NCBI GenBank assembly: GCA_016839745.1
Contig: JAEOTS010000175.1
Location: forward strand, 1 to 43,704
DNA from: Promethearchaeota archaeon
Lineage (GTDB): Archaea > Asgardarchaeota > Lokiarchaeia > Sigyniarchaeales > SOKP01
Reading direction: 5' to 3'
DNA length: 43,704 nt
The translations under genes were made by a program, and so were the position numbers. Below the pieces are notes generated by a model that was not told where the DNA came from, searched no databases, and worked only from the letters and a program-made list of their open reading frames with translations. Positions 599 through 33,365 of the stretch are shown piece after piece; within the stretch, counting starts at the first letter, position 1; the number at the start of each line of letters is the position of its first letter.

Positions 599-824
599 TG
601 TAGATCACTTTTACAATATTAAATTATTTGAGATTTTGATTTTAAATCTAATAGAGGTTAAGATTTTATATTTCTTTATTAGTTAAATAATCTGATAATA
701 ATGGAATAATAATTAAGGGCTTAGAACATTAGAACTATCTTTTCTCTTATGAAATCCGAAATTTTAATTAGTTAACCAAGATAATGTTAAAATTATACAG
801 AAAAAGTTTTTAGGAGATAATAAA

Positions 825-1472
825 TTGACTCACGAGCAATTTTATAAGGAAATTTCTGATGCTATTGTAAATTTAGAAAAGGAAAAAGCCATTGAACTAG
901 CAAATAGGGCTGTAAACGAAAATATGAATTTACTGGAAGTAATTGAAAAAGGATATGGAGATGGAATCCGAAGAATTGGAGATTTATGGGAAGAAGGAGA
1001 ATTTTTTCTACCCGAATTAATGCTTGGTGGTACAATTATGCAAGAATCCATGGACATTCTCTTACCAAAGTTAAAAAATAGTGGGGAAAGGATAAGTTCA
1101 GGAGCTGTAGTGATAGCGACAATAGAAGGAGATATTCATTCGATAGGAAAGACTATTGTGGGTACAATGTTAAGCGCAAATGGTTTTGAAGTTTATGACT
1201 TAGGCGCTGACGTACCTGTTGAGAAAATCATTGATACTGCTATTGAAAAGAAAGCTGATGTGATTGGAGTTTCTGCCTTACTTACTACCACCATGTTTGG
1301 TCAAAAAAAAATAGTTGATATTTTAGAAAAAAAAGGGATAAGAAATAAATTTAAAGTTATCATTGGAGGAGCTCCCGTTAATCAATCATGGACTGAAGAA
1401 TGTAAAGCAGATGGGTTCGCTGGTAGCGCTGTAGAGGCTGTCAAATTAGTTAAAGAATTATTGAATAAATGA
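825..1472 (+). CDS. methyltransferase cognate corrinoid (B12-binding) protein, MttC/MtbC-like
   Basis: N-terminal cap domain (GDLWEEGEFFLPEL), DxHxxG motif (GDIHSIGK), SALLTTT, IIGGAPV; GGAGA SD before the TTG start. Confidence 0.93.
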   Translation: MTHEQFYKEISDAIVNLEKEKAIELANRAVNENMNLLEVIEKGYGDGIRRIGDLWEEGEFFLPELMLGGTIMQESMDILLPKLKNSGERISSGAVVIATIEGDIHSIGKTIVGTMLSANGFEVYDLGADVPVEKIIDTAIEKKADVIGVSALLTTTMFGQKKIVDILEKKGIRNKFKVIIGGAPVNQSWTEECKADGFAGSAVEAVKLVKELLNK

Positions 1473-1497
1473 AAATCAATTAATAGGGGTAAAAATT

Positions 1498-2379
1498 ATG
1501 TTATTTCACGATTGGTTAAAAAATGATTCCAAAATCGTATTATTTGACGGAGGAATGGGATCAGAAATATTCAAACGTGGTATTAAGCCCGGGAAGCTTC
1601 CTGATACGCTTAATATCGAAAAACCCGATGTCATCTATGAGATTCACAAAGCATATTATGATGTAGGAGCAGACATGTGCCAGTCTAACACATTTGGAGC
1701 AAGCTATTTAAACTTACAAACCTACAAAGTGGAAAATCAAATTGAAGAAATAAATAAACGGGCATTAGAAATCATCAAAAAAGCTTGTCCTCCCAATCAT
1801 TTAATTGTAGCTGATATTGGTCCGTCTGGTCAATTTCGACCTCCCGTAGGTAAAGCCACACCAGAGCATTGGGTATCGAGCTTCACAAAACAAGCAAGTA
1901 TTTTAGAAAATGGAGTAGACCTCTGGCATATTGAAACAATGTCCGATATTGAAGAAATGGTGGCTGCAATAGAAGCGATAAGGAGTATTTCAACAAAACC
2001 GATAATTAGTTCTATGACTTATAAACAAACTAAGAGAGGATTTTTTACTATAATGGGTGACTCATTGGAAAAATGCGTGCAGATACAAGAAAACGCAAAT
2101 GTCGATGTAATTGGTGCTAACTGTACACTAGGTTCTGATGAGATGGTACATTTAATAAAAGAACTAAAAAACCTTACTGATAGACCGATTTCTGCAAAAC
2201 CAAACGCTGGGCAACCAAGAATCGATAGTAATAGTAGAGCACATTATGACCAACCCATTAAGGATTTTGTGAGTGATATTCGCGAAATAATTCAATTGGG
2301 TGCTAAAGTCGTCGGGGGATGCTGTGGAACATCTCCAGATACGATACGCGAAATTAGAAAAGTAATTGATTCATTATAG
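1498..2379 (+). CDS. homocysteine S-methyltransferase family protein (stand-alone MetH Hcy-binding domain)
   Basis: FDGGMGS, HKAYYDVGAD, IETMSD, GANC, PNAGQP and GGCCGT Zn-binding cysteines. Confidence 0.92.
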   Translation: MLFHDWLKNDSKIVLFDGGMGSEIFKRGIKPGKLPDTLNIEKPDVIYEIHKAYYDVGADMCQSNTFGASYLNLQTYKVENQIEEINKRALEIIKKACPPNHLIVADIGPSGQFRPPVGKATPEHWVSSFTKQASILENGVDLWHIETMSDIEEMVAAIEAIRSISTKPIISSMTYKQTKRGFFTIMGDSLEKCVQIQENANVDVIGANCTLGSDEMVHLIKELKNLTDRPISAKPNAGQPRIDSNSRAHYDQPIKDFVSDIREIIQLGAKVVGGCCGTSPDTIREIRKVIDSL

Positions 2380-2395
2380 AAATTAATAGTAGAGT

Positions 2396-3832
2396 GTGAA
2401 CACAATAATGGGAATATTAAGACCGAAAGTACAGGTATTAGATGAAGAACATAAAAATAAGATATATAACGAGGCTAAATACATATTAGAAAATTTGGGT
2501 ATCTTTTTAGAAAATGAAGATGCTGTAGAGTTGTTTAAAAACGAGGGAATTACTCATGAAGGCTCACGATATTTCATTCCTTTCGATTTAGTAGAAAAGT
2601 GTCTCAAAACAGTTCCAAACGAAATTAAATTATTTGATAGAGAAGGAAAAGAACATATCACTCTGGCAGCGGATAATGTTCACTTCGATCCTGGTTCTGC
2701 AGCAATTTTGTACTTTGACGAAACTACGGGAGAAATTAGAAACGCAGTTAAGGAAGACTTTGTGAGATTTTCTAAAGTGGTTGAGCATCTAAAATACATA
2801 GAAGCTCAAAGTACTGCCTTGATTTATCAAGATGTGCCGAAAGAAGCCCAAGATTGGCATAGATTAGCTACAGCTTTAATAAATTGCTATAAACCAGTTG
2901 TGACAGGAACATTTCGTAAAGAAAGTTTTTCAATAATGAAGGAATTATTGCTGAGTTGTAGACTCTCTGAAGACGATTTAGCGAGGAAACCATTAGCAAT
3001 TTTTGATGCTTGCCCTAGTCCTCCCTTAAAATGGTCGGATCTCACTACTCAGTCCCTTATAGATGCTGCAGTGAGTATGATCCCCTCTGAGTTCGTTTCT
3101 ATGCCGTTAGCAGGGGCCAGCGCTCCAATGAGTTTAATAGGTTCGATAACTCAGCATTGTTCTGAATGTCTAGCAGGAGTTGTAATTGGACAGTTAGCAA
3201 AAACAGGCGCTCCCTTGATATGGGGAGGCTCACCAGCAATTTTAGATATGAAGCAAGGAACCACTCCAATGGGAGCAATTGAAACCATGATGATTAATTT
3301 AGGAGATGTAGAGATGGGCAAATTTCTAAAAATGCCCACTCATGCTTATATGGGTTTAAGCGATTCTAAAGTTCCAGACGCTCAATCTGGCTTCGAAGCA
3401 GGCATGGGTGCTCTTTTAGCAGGGCTTGCGGGAGTTAACATGGTTTCGGGAGCTGGCATGCTAGATTTTGAATCCACCCAAAGCATTGAAAAATTAATAA
3501 TAGATAACGAGATAGCAGGAATGGTAAAAAGACTTATAAGAGGTGTAGAAGATTACGGGACGCCTTTTGCGTCTGATATCATTAAGGATTATGATAATAA
3601 AGAAGAATTGCTTTCACATCCCTCAACATTAAAATTATTCAGAAAAGAGCTTTTTATGACTGGTCCAGTAATAGATCGCATGTCTCGAGACATGTGGAAG
3701 GAGTCAGGTGCGAAATCTGCTCGAAAAAGAGCAAAGGAGCAAGCGTCGAAATTGATAGATAAAAGTCCTCTAAGACCTATTGATGATAATCTAGCTAAAG
3801 AATTAGAAGCCGTTTCTTTAAAATTTCTATAA
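2396..3832 (+). CDS. trimethylamine methyltransferase (MttB) superfamily, non-pyrrolysine member (start may be ATG at 2408)
   Basis: SPPLKW, GASAPMSLIG, GAPLIWG, SDSKVPDAQSGFE, GAGMLD, LIIDNEI; no in-frame TAG. Confidence 0.9.
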   Translation: MNTIMGILRPKVQVLDEEHKNKIYNEAKYILENLGIFLENEDAVELFKNEGITHEGSRYFIPFDLVEKCLKTVPNEIKLFDREGKEHITLAADNVHFDPGSAAILYFDETTGEIRNAVKEDFVRFSKVVEHLKYIEAQSTALIYQDVPKEAQDWHRLATALINCYKPVVTGTFRKESFSIMKELLLSCRLSEDDLARKPLAIFDACPSPPLKWSDLTTQSLIDAAVSMIPSEFVSMPLAGASAPMSLIGSITQHCSECLAGVVIGQLAKTGAPLIWGGSPAILDMKQGTTPMGAIETMMINLGDVEMGKFLKMPTHAYMGLSDSKVPDAQSGFEAGMGALLAGLAGVNMVSGAGMLDFESTQSIEKLIIDNEIAGMVKRLIRGVEDYGTPFASDIIKDYDNKEELLSHPSTLKLFRKELFMTGPVIDRMSRDMWKESGAKSARKRAKEQASKLIDKSPLRPIDDNLAKELEAVSLKFL

Positions 3833-3859
3833 TAATATTTATTGTTTTCTTTTTTTAAA

Positions 3860-4567
3860 TTATAGAAGTTTATCCAATAATTTAGATATTTCCTCACAAT
3901 ATATTTGTGCTCCTTTACTATTAAGGTGTCCTCCATCAATAGTCAAACTGAGATTTCTTCTACTACTTATTTTATCAGCCCATCTCGATTTTTTAGACCT
4001 GAAATAATCAATCATAAGGTTTATTGGATTATCCATAAGGTAACTACTTGAACTACTATTTATTATAATATCGTCAAAGCTTGAACTAACATCAACAATA
4101 TTGGTATTATATTTATCTCCAACTCTCTTTATTTGCTCGTTAATTAGTCGTCTATTTTGATTTAGCTGAGAATTATAAATTTCTCCTATGCAACTTAAAG
4201 TCGTTATTACTATTTTAGCGTTAGTTAGGGATGTTATGGTTTTTAACCTTTGCTCGAGTAAATTGCCCATCTCTGACACAGGAGTTACCTGTTTTATACT
4301 CATAAAAGGCCATCTTTGTTTAATGTGTGGTAAGAGAAGATCGTTAATACCAGCTTCAATTACTAAAAGATCATATTTGTGTTTATCTTTCTCTAGAATC
4401 TTTATAAGGCGTTTGGTGACCTCTTGTAGCGTTTCTCCACCTTTTCCTTTATTATGGCAAATAGAATCAGGAAATCTACGTTTGATCAGATCTACAAAAT
4501 TTATACCTAATTTTCCTTCAGTTAAACTATCTCCAATAAAAAGCAATTGATATCTCATAAAAATCAA
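3860..4567 (-). CDS. SGNH/GDSL hydrolase (lipase/esterase)
   Basis: IGDSLTEG, NKGKGG, AGIND and DGGH catalytic blocks. Confidence 0.9.
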   Translation of the reverse strand: MIFMRYQLLFIGDSLTEGKLGINFVDLIKRRFPDSICHNKGKGGETLQEVTKRLIKILEKDKHKYDLLVIEAGINDLLLPHIKQRWPFMSIKQVTPVSEMGNLLEQRLKTITSLTNAKIVITTLSCIGEIYNSQLNQNRRLINEQIKRVGDKYNTNIVDVSSSFDDIIINSSSSSYLMDNPINLMIDYFRSKKSRWADKISSRRNLSLTIDGGHLNSKGAQIYCEEISKLLDKLL

Positions 4568-4656: not shown

Positions 4657-5583
4657 TTATTTATAATTTATTATTAACACAGCGATTAAAACAATAAAAC
4701 CTCCCATAAGGTTCCATATTAGTATAATCTCAGCTCTATTCAAAAGTATCGAAAAGATTAAAGTTAAAAAAGGTTCTACATATAAGAATGAGGCTCCTTT
4801 TGAAGATTTAAGTTCCTTTTGGGATTTTTGCCAAATAAAATAACCAATTATATAACAACCAACACCTAAATATAGGCCAGTTATTAAAACAACGACATTA
4901 GCTAAATTTTGGATAAAAATTAGTAGTTCGTTATTTATTAAAACGAAGATAAACAATTCCACTGTTCCAAGATAAGCTATATATTTGAGTGTAATTAAAT
5001 TAGATTTCTCTTTGGATATCTTTTTTGTAACAATTGTATACACCGCCCATAACAAAGGTGTTATAAGAGCGTATATATACCCTAAGAAATTAGGTGTTTT
5101 AGGAGTAAGTGTTCCTAAATCGCCCCCCGTCACTAATAAAAAACCTCCAATTGTAGCAATACCAAATCCTATTAGTTTGATACTTGTTAATTTTTCTTTA
5201 AAAAAAAATAAAGCTAAGATAGTGATTAATACGGGAGATAATAAGCACACAAATAAAGCCGGTAGAGAAGGTCCGATTAGATCAATAGCAGAATATTGAA
5301 TAGCGAAGAAAAGCGTAAGCCCGCAAAAACTAGCAATAATAATGTACATCCATTCCCTTTTAGAGTAAAGAACTTTTTCTTTTTTTTCTTCTAATTTATT
5401 ATATTGTATTTTTCGATTTATGAGTAAGTATATATCAACTATAATAAACACTAATGAGACTATAACAAATCTAGTCAACGCAAGAGACATTGGTGGCATA
5501 AATTCCACTACAATATCTACAAGAACAAATGAAAAACTCCAGATAAATACCATGAATACTAGTAACGCGTAAATTATCAGCAT
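4657..5583 (-). CDS. DMT/EamA family transporter
   Basis: about 10 hydrophobic segments in two EamA repeats (IWSFSF...LTRF; WAVYTIVTK; LYVEP). Confidence 0.88.
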   Translation of the reverse strand: MLIIYALLVFMVFIWSFSFVLVDIVVEFMPPMSLALTRFVIVSLVFIIVDIYLLINRKIQYNKLEEKKEKVLYSKREWMYIIIASFCGLTLFFAIQYSAIDLIGPSLPALFVCLLSPVLITILALFFFKEKLTSIKLIGFGIATIGGFLLVTGGDLGTLTPKTPNFLGYIYALITPLLWAVYTIVTKKISKEKSNLITLKYIAYLGTVELFIFVLINNELLIFIQNLANVVVLITGLYLGVGCYIIGYFIWQKSQKELKSSKGASFLYVEPFLTLIFSILLNRAEIILIWNLMGGFIVLIAVLIINYK

Positions 5584-31158: not shown

Positions 31159-32280
31159 ATGGAAAATCGGCGTTTGTTTCGGTCTAAAATTCAGCTGTTA
31201 TTTTCGCTCCATTTTAATGGCTATTTGAAAGATATAAGGTTATTTAAGGCTTTTTTAGATGTTCCTCTAAAAGATTTTATACCAAATGAAATACAAGCCC
31301 AAGTTAGAATTTACGACGACGCTCCGGTTTTATTTTACTTAGATAAAGAGAACCCTGCATCGCTTAGGACAATTTCTGCCCCCCATATGATTTCAGTTAT
31401 GCTACAAGAATTAATCTTAAACGATAGCGACGATTTACTTATTTTAGGAGCTAAAAGTGGATATATTGCCGTTCTAGCTCATAAATTAGCTCCAAAAGGC
31501 AAGATTGTAATTTTAGAAGCTAATTCGAAAATAGCGAAAATTACCGCAGAAAATTTAAACAATCAAAATTTAAACGGGGAAATAGAAGTCATAGTAAAAA
31601 ATCCGCTTGAAGGATTTCCTGAGTTAAGTCCGTGGCAAAAGATCCTCGTAACTGGCGCAATAAAGCAAGAACGAATAAATCCATTGCTAGAGCAATTAGA
31701 TTCTACAGAAGGGGTATTATTTGCCCCCATTGGAGAAAATTATTTGCAAACTTACACTCAGATCATTCGATTTGGGGATGAATTTTTTGGAAAAAAGTAC
31801 CTTCAAGTACGTTTCACACCTCTAATAACTCAAATTGAATTAGATGAATTAAAACTTATAACGGATATAGACGAACTTGAAGCTTTTACCGTTAAACATA
31901 AAAAAAACAAACCGAGGAATGCAAATCTCAAGGGAAATGTTACCATTAACTATGCTTCTAATGTTTTAGATGAAGTGAGACTAGAACCTTATTTAAAAAG
32001 CAATTTACACGAGATCAACGATGAAAGTATCTATGATGCTATTAAACAACACATGGAACAGGCAATCAATACAAAAAACAAAAAGGAAAATCGAGAATAT
32101 TTAGAAAATATCAATGCATCTCTAGAGCAAATAAAGAAGTTAATTAGTAAACTAAAGAAAGATATTAAAGAAAAGGGTATTGTTGATCCGCGATTTGTAG
32201 AGAAAAAAATTAAACTTATTGAAAAATATCAACTCGAAGTTAGTAGTGTACAAAATAAGTTAAAAAAAGATATACTCTAA
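31159..32280 (+). CDS. protein-L-isoaspartate O-methyltransferase-like protein with C-terminal coiled-coil extension
   Basis: TISAPHM, LILGAKSGY, PWQKILVTGA, LLEQL...G...PIG, VRFTPL; about 150 aa helical tail. Confidence 0.8.
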   Translation: MENRRLFRSKIQLLFSLHFNGYLKDIRLFKAFLDVPLKDFIPNEIQAQVRIYDDAPVLFYLDKENPASLRTISAPHMISVMLQELILNDSDDLLILGAKSGYIAVLAHKLAPKGKIVILEANSKIAKITAENLNNQNLNGEIEVIVKNPLEGFPELSPWQKILVTGAIKQERINPLLEQLDSTEGVLFAPIGENYLQTYTQIIRFGDEFFGKKYLQVRFTPLITQIELDELKLITDIDELEAFTVKHKKNKPRNANLKGNVTINYASNVLDEVRLEPYLKSNLHEINDESIYDAIKQHMEQAINTKNKKENREYLENINASLEQIKKLISKLKKDIKEKGIVDPRFVEKKIKLIEKYQLEVSSVQNKLKKDIL

Positions 32281-33365
32281 TAATATTTTCCATAATTTCT
32301 TGCAACATCCATAAATTTTCTAACATTTTTTAAAGGTATCTCTTTAAATATAACCGTACTTGGCCCTAGAATAAAATGCTTATTTTCTTTTAATACATTT
32401 AACAATTCCTTTACATGTAATTCGATTTGATCACTAGTTCCATATGGAAGGATGTAAGACACATCTCCAAAACCAATTAATACAAAATCTGGATATCGTT
32501 CGTTGATATAAACAGGATCACAACCTCCTTCGAATCCTTGCAATCCTCGAAATCCTGCTTTCTTAAAAGAAGAGATTAATTCTGTGGGATCTCCATCAGT
32601 ATGTATTTGAGAAATTAAATTAGCCTCTGAGATAATAGAATTGATTTTTTTGTAGTAGGGCATAAAATCTTTTTCCCACCTTTCAGGTGAGATCATTGTG
32701 TATCCCTTATATGCAACATCGTCCAATAGGGTTACAACTTTACCCCTACTTTCTGTTGCGTTTATCAATCCTAATATATTAGTTTGGGTCAAGTATGCGT
32801 AGAATTCAATTAATTCTCTATAGAGGGCTGTTCTTTTTTTGAAATGATAGCTAAAATCTATCATACCCATACTTTTCCACACACGATCGAAAATACCATC
32901 CACCATTAAAACGGGAAAGATTTTAGGCGAAATTTTCTCATATCGAGTTATTACTTTATTAATTAGCTCATGATTTTCTATGAGCTTTAAACTGGCTTTA
33001 ATCTCGTTTAAGGTGTCTAAATGTTTAATATATCCGCCCTCATAATAACTTGTATCAGGTCTGACAGCTTGTCCATCTTCTCGAATTCTAATACTTTTTC
33101 CTTCCTCATTTTCAATTTTGATGCTTTTAAATTTAAGACTACGAGGAAATGGAGCAAAAATAGAATCAAAACCTAAGATCCGAGGGATATCAAAATAGAG
33201 GTTGTTGAATATTTTCCCATGATAATCTTTTAAAATACTTCCTTTATTCATATCAATGAATTCTTCTCTGATATATTGAACATGTGTGGGAACTCTTTCA
33301 AGCTTTTTACGCTCATCATCGTCATAAACCGCTAAATAACGCTCGTAGCAATTCATATTCCACAC
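32277..33365 (-). CDS. uroporphyrinogen decarboxylase family protein (URO-D/MtaA-like TIM barrel)
   Basis: DDVAYK..MISP..W...FMPY, HTDG, G.GDVS..LP.GT, FILGPS...PLKNV. Confidence 0.82.
   Translation of the reverse strand: MWNMNCYERYLAVYDDDERKKLERVPTHVQYIREEFIDMNKGSILKDYHGKIFNNLYFDIPRILGFDSIFAPFPRSLKFKSIKIENEEGKSIRIREDGQAVRPDTSYYEGGYIKHLDTLNEIKASLKLIENHELINKVITRYEKISPKIFPVLMVDGIFDRVWKSMGMIDFSYHFKKRTALYRELIEFYAYLTQTNILGLINATESRGKVVTLLDDVAYKGYTMISPERWEKDFMPYYKKINSIISEANLISQIHTDGDPTELISSFKKAGFRGLQGFEGGCDPVYINERYPDFVLIGFGDVSYILPYGTSDQIELHVKELLNVLKENKHFILGPSTVIFKEIPLKNVRKFMDVARNYGKYY

Follow-up and report, generated by a model that had tools for sequence, protein, structure and literature searches.

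The synthesis of methionine is assumed to proceed by way of MetH, with methyl-folate as the donor, or of the MetE or core-MetE families. In much of the Asgard archaea no MetH, MetE or core-MetE is seen, and this includes the genus of the Promethearchaeota archaeon (Lokiarchaeia; Sigyniarchaeales) whose contig JAEOTS010000175.1 (assembly GCA_016839745.1), taken at its full length of 43,704 nucleotides, is referred to here as the window. The only recognisable methionine synthase of this genus is a set of three genes at positions 825 to 3832 of the window, which encode a corrinoid protein (C), a stand-alone homocysteine (Hcy) methyltransferase module (E) and an MttB-superfamily protein (B); in the clusters of some relatives a fourth gene encodes a protein resembling the activation domain of MetH (A). 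On balance, the three genes are best explained as a split cobalamin-dependent methionine synthase, which lacks a pterin module and in which the MttB-family protein makes up the donor half.

Several described systems share parts of this arrangement. Williams et al. (2022) reported a four-gene cluster of MttB, Hcy methyltransferase, corrinoid protein and activation protein in Ca. Electryoneota and diverse bacteria (PMC9324843), for which they hypothesised a corrinoid-dependent synthesis of methionine with MttB in the place of the pterin module of MetH (PMC9324843). The three core proteins and the proposed chemistry are the same as those of the window; an initial sequence-only reading of this DNA had remarked that similar logic had been proposed in some bacteria, and this is indeed the case, such that the logic itself is not new, while the bacterial system is itself a hypothesis. 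The MttB proteins of such clusters in Ignavibacteria, Acidobacteriota and Phycisphaerae fall in one clade with that of the window, and the full four-gene set also occurs in the Asgard families f30, f17, f8 and part of f25 (families and genera are given here by working labels). The differences lie in the activation gene, which the window operon and indeed the whole of the window's family lack, in the gene order, B-A-C-E as opposed to C-E-B, and in the genomic setting, inasmuch as the metagenome-assembled genomes (MAGs) of Electryoneota also hold a full MetH, whereas neither classical MetH nor MetE was detected in the window genome.

Genetic work by Mausz et al. (2025) established that an MttB-family enzyme and the Hcy module of a split MetH can both draw on a single corrinoid protein (PMC12478193). 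In the MtgBCDE system of Ruegeria pomeroyi and the split MetH of Phaeobacter inhibens, as in the window, the MttB-family protein (MtgB), the corrinoid protein (MtgC) and the Hcy module (MtgE) are separate; reactivation is of the RamA type and the carriers are usually without both MetH and MetE. The system, however, needs MtgD, a pterin-binding protein which in R. pomeroyi acts reversibly and is indispensable for making methionine as well as for betaine use (PMC12478193), and such a module was seen neither within or beside the Asgard cluster nor elsewhere in the window genome. Moreover, mtgE in marine bacteria mostly lies away from mtgBC, whereas E adjoins C and B in the window; MtgB uses glycine betaine, and its contact residues are missing from the window protein; and the hosts of MtgBCDE are aerobes. 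In the MtgB/MtgC/MtgA system of Desulfitobacterium hafniense and in MttB/MttC of Methanosarcina, a TIM barrel of the MttB superfamily is likewise paired with a cognate corrinoid protein, but the acceptor enzymes are MtgA (for tetrahydrofolate, THF) and MtbA (for coenzyme M, CoM) in the position held here by the Hcy module. The window MttB differs from its counterparts in having no pyrrolysine, in contrast to Methanosarcina MttB, and in not conserving Y97, R312, H348 and F356 of MtgB.

Classical MetH is related to the cluster through its Hcy domain, the cap and the Rossmann domain that bind B12 and, where relatives of the window are concerned, its activation domain, all of which are homologous, with the zinc triad and the DxHxxG motif conserved. 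It is, however, a single polypeptide, whereas the modules of the window are separate and come without a pterin-binding or an activation domain; moreover, the stand-alone Hcy modules of Asgard archaea group in a clade of their own, to which the fused MetH of Promethearchaeum and its relatives does not belong. Asgard genes for MttB-like, corrinoid and MtrH proteins have been read as signs of methylotrophy, with methionine and homocysteine not mentioned (PMC11291895), and a full-text literature search turned up no account of the Asgard cluster. What is particular here, therefore, is that the cluster has three genes and no activation protein, and that the genus shows no other methionine synthase that can be recognised.

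The assignment of the three proteins is secure at the level of domains. The open reading frame (ORF) coordinates confirm three co-oriented genes separated by gaps of exactly 25 and 16 nt, and the identities given to them by the sequence-only reading are borne out by Pfam matches far above the cut-offs. The Hcy module matches PF02574 (S-methyl_trans) at 216 bits (cut-off 22) over positions 2 to 282 of the 283 of the profile. The GANC and GGCC motifs that had been noticed in it are present as IGANCTLG and VGGCCGT, and their cysteines, C209 and C275/C276, align to the zinc cysteines of the Hcy domain of Thermotoga MetH; all three are invariant in 24 homologues. The best solved relative of the module is this same Hcy domain of Thermotoga maritima MetH (1Q7M), at 169.5 bits, as against 53 bits for BHMT and 48 bits for HMT, and, judged by these scores, it is nearer to the corrinoid-dependent MetH than to the corrinoid-independent BHMT and HMT. 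Its nearest NCBIfam matches are YitJ, BHMT and MetH Hcy modules, all of them under the equivalog cut-offs, and its predicted activity is methyl transfer from methylcobalamin to homocysteine. Among the homologues of intermediate length that were examined, none joins the Hcy module to a corrinoid or an MttB domain; the fusions seen instead are Hcy-pterin, Hcy-pterin-B12, Hcy-MTHFR (of the YitJ type) and Hcy with unannotated tails, and the fusion search as a whole neither supports nor contradicts a split synthase.

The corrinoid protein is composed of a B12-binding cap (B12-binding_2) and a Rossmann domain (B12-binding), both above the Pfam cut-offs. Its His-on motif DxHxxG is formed by D103, H105 and G108, and these residues, together with S150 and L152 of the SxL motif and the glycine pair G181-G182 (GG), are invariant in 24 homologues. 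Against TIGR02370, which describes the cognate corrinoid proteins of methyltransferases, it scores 213.9 bits (cut-off 215.3), while the MtbC and MtgC equivalog models of NCBIfam give ca 200 bits, well under their cut-offs.

The third protein scores 355 bits against TIGR02369, the model of true trimethylamine (TMA) methyltransferases, whose cut-off is 525, and Leu321 takes the position of pyrrolysine in Methanosarcina barkeri MttB. The frame has no internal stop, and a pyrrolysine reading was rejected, there being no in-frame TAG. On these sequence grounds the protein is to be placed in the MttB superfamily and not classed as a TMA methyltransferase. Against the solved structures it scores 190 bits for MtgB (2QNE/9YCE) and 173 for MttB (7XCL), which makes it the least similar of the four MttB paralogues of the genome, the others reaching 223 to 250 bits and 195 to 250 bits, respectively.

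The methyl donor can be approached through the active site. Mutagenesis and a ligand-bound structure have defined how MtgB binds glycine betaine (Picking et al. 2026; PMC13080624): Y97 and F356 make cation-pi contacts and R312 and H348 hold the carboxylate (PMC13080624), and R312 is kept in all characterised members, all of which act on acidic quaternary amines (PMC13080624). When the window protein is aligned pairwise with the MtgB structure, its residues at these places are S101 (Y97), H316 (R312), S351 (H348) and E359 (F356), such that none of the four is kept; the assignments of H348 and F356 are less certain than those of Y97 and R312, because the alignment carries a one-residue gap around them. 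The same substitutions run through the clade of Hcy-linked MttB proteins described below, which has Ser, His or Gln, Ser and Glu at the four positions (two bacterial members have Val or Ile); in the place of R312, Asgard proteins of the clade have His, and four of its five bacterial proteins have Gln. The clade is further marked by the motifs F-D/T-PGSAA, PT-H/Q-xY and SGxGMxDFE, while two paralogues encoded on another contig of the genome (C116) retain Arg at the R312 position (PSRGPG). Since the contact residues of MtgB are not kept across the Hcy-linked clade, a betaine donor is unsupported, and the suggestion of the sequence-only reading that the cluster is functionally a modular betaine-homocysteine methyltransferase finds no support at the level of residues; the donor is probably neither glycine betaine nor another acidic quaternary amine.

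With regard to alternative enzymes, the Hcy module is not only the sole acceptor methyltransferase of the operon, as had been noticed, but also the only PF02574 match in the genome. A profile search of the window genome with PF01717 (MetE and core-MetE) gave no match. Two proteins match PF00809 (Pterin_bind), a DHPS (TIGR01496, above the cut-off) and a fusion of a DHPS-like domain with the MtrA-like DUF4346, and no pterin module of the MetH or AcsE type was found among them. Neither a pterin-binding MetH domain nor MetE is thus found in the window genome, in keeping with the sequence-only reading. The MetH activation domain PF02965 is likewise missing from the genome at E ≤ 0.1, and tblastn with seven activation proteins from Asgard archaea and bacteria gave a best match there of E = 0.09. 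S-adenosylhomocysteine hydrolase, on the other hand, is present, and homocysteine must therefore be made and be in need of remethylation or disposal. Reactivation of the corrinoid could fall to the single RamA/RACo-type activase of the genome (PF14574, 299 bits; contig C37), which is proposed for this role because the genome lacks a protein with the MetH reactivation domain.

Beside these stands the wider complement of corrinoid-related genes in the genome, which counts four MttB paralogues, eleven B12-binding proteins, two MtrH homologues, neither of which adjoins a corrinoid gene and whose family is distinct from that of MtgD, and thirteen genes of the URO-D family (MtaA/MtbA-like), one of them in the window itself (Table 1). 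Several of the URO-D-family genes adjoin corrinoid genes (contigs C185 and C5), which indicates a large repertoire of corrinoid methyltransferases. The DHPS-like/DUF4346 fusion lies on contig C106 (L007:967-2088, minus strand) beside a DUF1464 protein; its pterin-binding TIM barrel is accompanied by a score of 221 bits to the MtrA model TIGR00284, under the cut-off, and by weak MeTr/AcsE matches, and from these it could be a pterin:corrinoid methyltransferase.

The sequence-only reading had concluded that this is a folate-independent, B12-dependent route to methionine. Such a route is plausible, no MetH pterin module having been found. The part of the claim which is not supported is independence from pterins, for which the two orphan MtrH homologues and the thirteen URO-D-family genes elsewhere in the genome have to be considered: given these, methyl exchange between the corrinoid and tetrahydromethanopterin (H4MPT) is also conceivable, like that of MtgC via MtgD in Ruegeria (PMC12478193).

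The cluster is conserved well beyond the window. All genome counts here are samples of incomplete MAGs, and the absences of MetE, MetH and activation genes given for the window genome come from searches with profiles and tblastn. Of 24 sampled genomes of the same genus, 21 have an orthologous Hcy module, at 62 to 89% identity, and in all 21 carriers the corrinoid gene lies directly upstream and the MttB gene directly downstream wherever the contig continues (C-E-B). In the same genus PF01717 has no match in either of two overlapping draws (0 of 24 and 0 of 21, together ca 30 distinct genomes), while MTHFR-like genes occur in all the genomes sampled. In other genera of the family the order C-E-B recurs in 15 of 18 genomes of g12 and in all four of g14, with B-C-E in g16.

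When 251 Asgard genomes were sampled across the phylum, Hcy modules of the stand-alone kind were found in the window's family (40 of 54 genomes), f8 (20 of 26), f25 (12 of 16) and f30 (5 of 5), while the matches in f17 (5 of 10) lie mostly inside long fused frames. The conservation which the sequence-only reading would lead one to expect is thus found, the triad being kept across the genus and in five Asgard families, usually together with gene A. From 20 fetched Asgard loci the arrangements read C-E-B or C-E-B-A in f25, C-E-A-B in f30 and f17, and C-E-A in f8, with the MttB gene ca 1.2 kb off or with none within 4 kb. Gene A, which is present in f30, f17, f8 and part of f25 and absent from the operon across the window's family, matches the MetH activation domain at 31.7, 33.6 and 38.5 bits (cut-off 25) in three of four representatives, the one from f25 scoring 21.6, and this match ties the module to MetH chemistry. 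When all ORFs of 24 loci from Asgard archaea and bacteria were compared with one another, only C, E, B and A recurred: the corrinoid gene adjoins the Hcy module in 23 of the 24 and the activation-like gene is present in 15, and in none of these loci was there a conserved transporter or activase neighbour that might hint at the donor. Second, lone copies of the Hcy module, without a corrinoid or MttB gene within 4 kb, occur in f8 (L178 and L180) and in f30 (L186, L188 and L189), those of f30 forming a long-branched clade of their own.

Clear core-MetE matches, and no match to the Hcy module, are found in the families f6, f18, f22 and f24; PF01717 has no match in f8 and f30 and three weak ones in f1. 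Within the same order as the window genome, to which Promethearchaeum syntrophicum MK-D1 also belongs, two genera of family f2 (g2 and g9) carry a canonical MTHFR beside a fused Hcy-pterin-B12 MetH of 808 to 844 residues; these relatives have MTHFR and fused MetH instead of the triad, which therefore fills the niche of MetH. The loci concerned (L049-L054, L061 and L137) also carry a weak activation-like protein, and g9 is the genus which includes P. syntrophicum MK-D1. In the sampled genomes of f10 (0 of 59) and f15 (0 of 19) neither the Hcy module nor a MetE-family protein is found, and these families may be methionine auxotrophs or users of an unrecognised enzyme.

Outside the family, the nearest representatives of clusters at 50% identity (40 to 46% identity to the module) again lie beside MttB genes; those on low-GC contigs group with the Asgard families f25 and f30 in trees, while those on GC-rich contigs show the orders B-C-E, EamA-E-B and B-E, and genomes of Ignavibacteria, Acidobacteriota and Phycisphaerae have B-A-C-E. 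A wider scan of contigs found MttB at 4 loci among the 80 matches listed, which were mostly fused bacterial MetH, and is unusable as an estimate of frequency; the four closest bacterial stand-alone Hcy modules among the matches listed (L073-L076) have no corrinoid or MttB neighbour.

Trees were built for MttB, by maximum likelihood, and for the Hcy module, both of them small, from quick searches and with midpoint roots. In the former, all 16 Asgard Hcy-linked MttB proteins and five of the six bacterial ones form one clade (100% in the SH-like approximate likelihood ratio test), apart from the three other paralogues of the window genome and also from additional ones in a related genome. It is therefore a dedicated subfamily that supplies the MttB partner, and not merely any MttB that happens to lie nearby. 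The tree of the Hcy module shows no descent of the Asgard stand-alone modules from the fused MetH that Promethearchaeum and its relatives carry; this fused MetH is nested within bacterial (Bacillota-like) MetH, a position which suggests its acquisition from bacteria; the Hcy modules of the bacterial B-A-C-E clusters branch apart from the Asgard ones. As the searches were quick and the roots are midpoint roots, no direction of transfer is claimed.

From these features a mechanism may be proposed. The MttB-family protein, as methyltransferase 1, would demethylate a small substrate and load the methyl group onto the Co(I) of the corrinoid protein; the Hcy module, as methyltransferase 2, would then let a zinc-activated homocysteine thiolate take the methyl group from methyl-Co(III) to give methionine; and a RamA/RACo-type activase, encoded elsewhere, would re-reduce any Co(II) formed by adventitious oxidation. 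In the window's family RamA would thus replace the S-adenosylmethionine (SAM)-dependent activation protein which other Asgard families and bacteria have kept. The domains, their catalytic motifs, the conserved operon, the dedicated MttB clade and the want of a detectable alternative enzyme are matters of observation, to which the direction of methyl flow, the class of donor, the role of RamA and the contacts between the proteins are added by inference.

A number of points weigh against a split synthase fed by MttB. Some f8 genomes have C-E-A without an MttB gene within 4 kb, which means that a genome may encode the core with no MttB gene beside it. The corrinoid might also be loaded from methyl-H4MPT by the two orphan MtrH homologues, and if it is, MttB is not the only, or not the main, source of methyl groups. 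A housekeeping methionine synthase which depends on a methylated compound from the environment would be unusual. Moreover, the parts of the cluster have not strictly co-evolved, since the Hcy modules of the bacterial B-A-C-E clusters branch elsewhere, and the literature searched holds no biochemical or genetic test of the Hcy-linked MttB clade. Finally, because the window genome is only 89% complete (3.53 Mb in 192 contigs, 5.8% contamination), the absences of MetE, MetH and the activation domain are provisional.

Some of these points feed the alternative which survives best, namely that the corrinoid protein is a shared hub like that of Ruegeria MtgBCDE, loaded in the main by an MtrH-type enzyme, whose gene lies elsewhere, from methyl-H4MPT or methyl-THF as the housekeeping route to methionine, with MttB mainly catabolic, its methyl groups passing through MtrH to the Wood-Ljungdahl pathway, and any flow from MttB to homocysteine incidental. 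The two MtrH homologues without an adjacent corrinoid gene, the MTHFR-like genes throughout the genus and the f8 genomes with C-E-A alone would all fit, as would the interpretation of Asgard MttB, MtbC and MtrH sets as methylotrophy (PMC11291895) and the requirement for MtgC and MtgD in both methionine synthesis and betaine use in Ruegeria (PMC12478193). Yet a pterin methyltransferase is never part of the conserved cluster, in which only C, E, B and A recur, and the linked MttB belongs to a clade that has been kept beside the Hcy module across phyla, while the catabolic MttB paralogues sit elsewhere with a corrinoid protein of their own (contig C116); moreover, the lineage has lost the fused MetH, pterin module included, rather than retaining it. 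Such a hub is accordingly rather unlikely, though it deserves to be taken seriously. Distinctly less probable is that the MttB-clade protein stands in functionally for the pterin module and binds not a methylamine but an intracellular one-carbon carrier or ubiquitous metabolite, such as methyl-H4MPT or a methylated cofactor, the whole being an ordinary de novo synthase with an unusual TIM-barrel donor module: no member of the MttB superfamily is known to use a pterin, the characterised ones acting on methylamines and quaternary amines (PMC13080624), and neither Pfam nor NCBIfam reveals a pterin-binding signature in the window protein. That the Hcy-type module is corrinoid-independent like MmuM/HMT or BHMT (using S-methylmethionine, SAM or betaine), or methylates some other thiol and lies here by coincidence, is scarcely credible, for although PF02574 also covers corrinoid-independent enzymes and the NCBIfam matches to YitJ, BHMT and HMT are all under the cut-offs, it has 169 bits to the MetH Hcy domain as against 53 for BHMT and 48 for HMT, with a corrinoid gene adjacent in 23 of 24 loci and a MetH activation-like gene in 15.

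If the split synthase with an MttB donor half is accepted, a wider proposal can be put forward tentatively, with rather more doubt than confidence: the Hcy-linked MttB clade would define a third kind of cobalamin-dependent methionine synthase, whose donor is neither folate/pterin nor betaine, which would be the sole means of remethylating homocysteine in several abundant Asgard families (the window's family, f8 and f30), and in which an ATP-dependent RamA would have replaced SAM-dependent reactivation in the window's family. Were this true, the SAM cycle in these families would depend on some methylated compound. With an environmental donor, the methionine and SAM supply of these sediment archaea would be tied to cobalamin and to the availability of methylamines or osmolytes; with an intracellular carrier as the donor, the MttB superfamily would have a function beyond amine demethylation. 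The system is small, consisting of three proteins and RamA, and as such is directly testable, the active-site motifs of the clade serving as a guide to the choice of substrates.

The features of the locus are collected in Table 1. The GGAG in the upstream stretch is located 8 nt 5' of the TTG start of the corrinoid gene. The MttB gene may start either at the GTG of position 2396 or at an in-frame ATG at 2408; the ATG is favoured because most orthologues outside the closest species align to the protein only from residue 5. Archaeal RNA polymerase terminates at oligo-T, and the oligo-T run in the gap that follows the MttB stop codon is likely to be the terminator of the operon. The origin of the DNA from an Asgard archaeon is borne out by the nearest database proteins, which carry the names Lokiarchaeota and Promethearchaeota, and by the place of P. 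syntrophicum MK-D1 within the same order.

Table 1. Features of the three-gene cluster and of other genes, in window coordinates
Feature	Position	Strand	Remarks
AT-rich intergenic stretch, presumed promoter	599..824	+	GGAG at 813-816
Corrinoid protein (C), 215 aa, TTG start	825..1472	+	PF02607 68 bits, PF02310 101 bits
Stand-alone MetH-type Hcy S-methyltransferase module (E), 293 aa	1498..2379	+	PF02574 216 bits
Non-pyrrolysine MttB-superfamily methyltransferase (B), 478 aa, GTG start	2396..3832	+	PF06253 247 bits
Oligo-T run TTGTTTTCTTTTTTT, likely terminator	3842..3856	+	27-nt gap between MttB stop codon and convergent gene
GDSL hydrolase	3860..4567	-	
EamA/DMT-family transporter	4657..5583	-	
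URO-D-family (MtaA/MtbA-like) gene	32277..33365	-	

A second MttB cluster lies at positions 44662-51152 of contig C116 (L059:6663-13153), where one MttB gene with a corrinoid protein is divergent from another MttB, the second arm comprising this MttB, a pyridoxal phosphate (PLP) enzyme of Cys/Met metabolism (PF01053, 389 bits) and an MFS_2 transporter; by these matches the cluster appears to be another link of MttB to sulfur amino-acid metabolism. A recoding of a C116 MttB, with three TGA codons, was rejected, the profile match having overrun into the upstream gene and the ORF being intact.

The genes for the GDSL hydrolase and the EamA/DMT-family transporter directly downstream of the window cluster, on the opposite strand, are not conserved beside it in the other loci compared, and in the other Asgard loci no homologue of the transporter was detected next to the cluster. 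On one GC-rich bacterial contig (L072), an EamA gene lies directly 5' of an Hcy-MttB pair.

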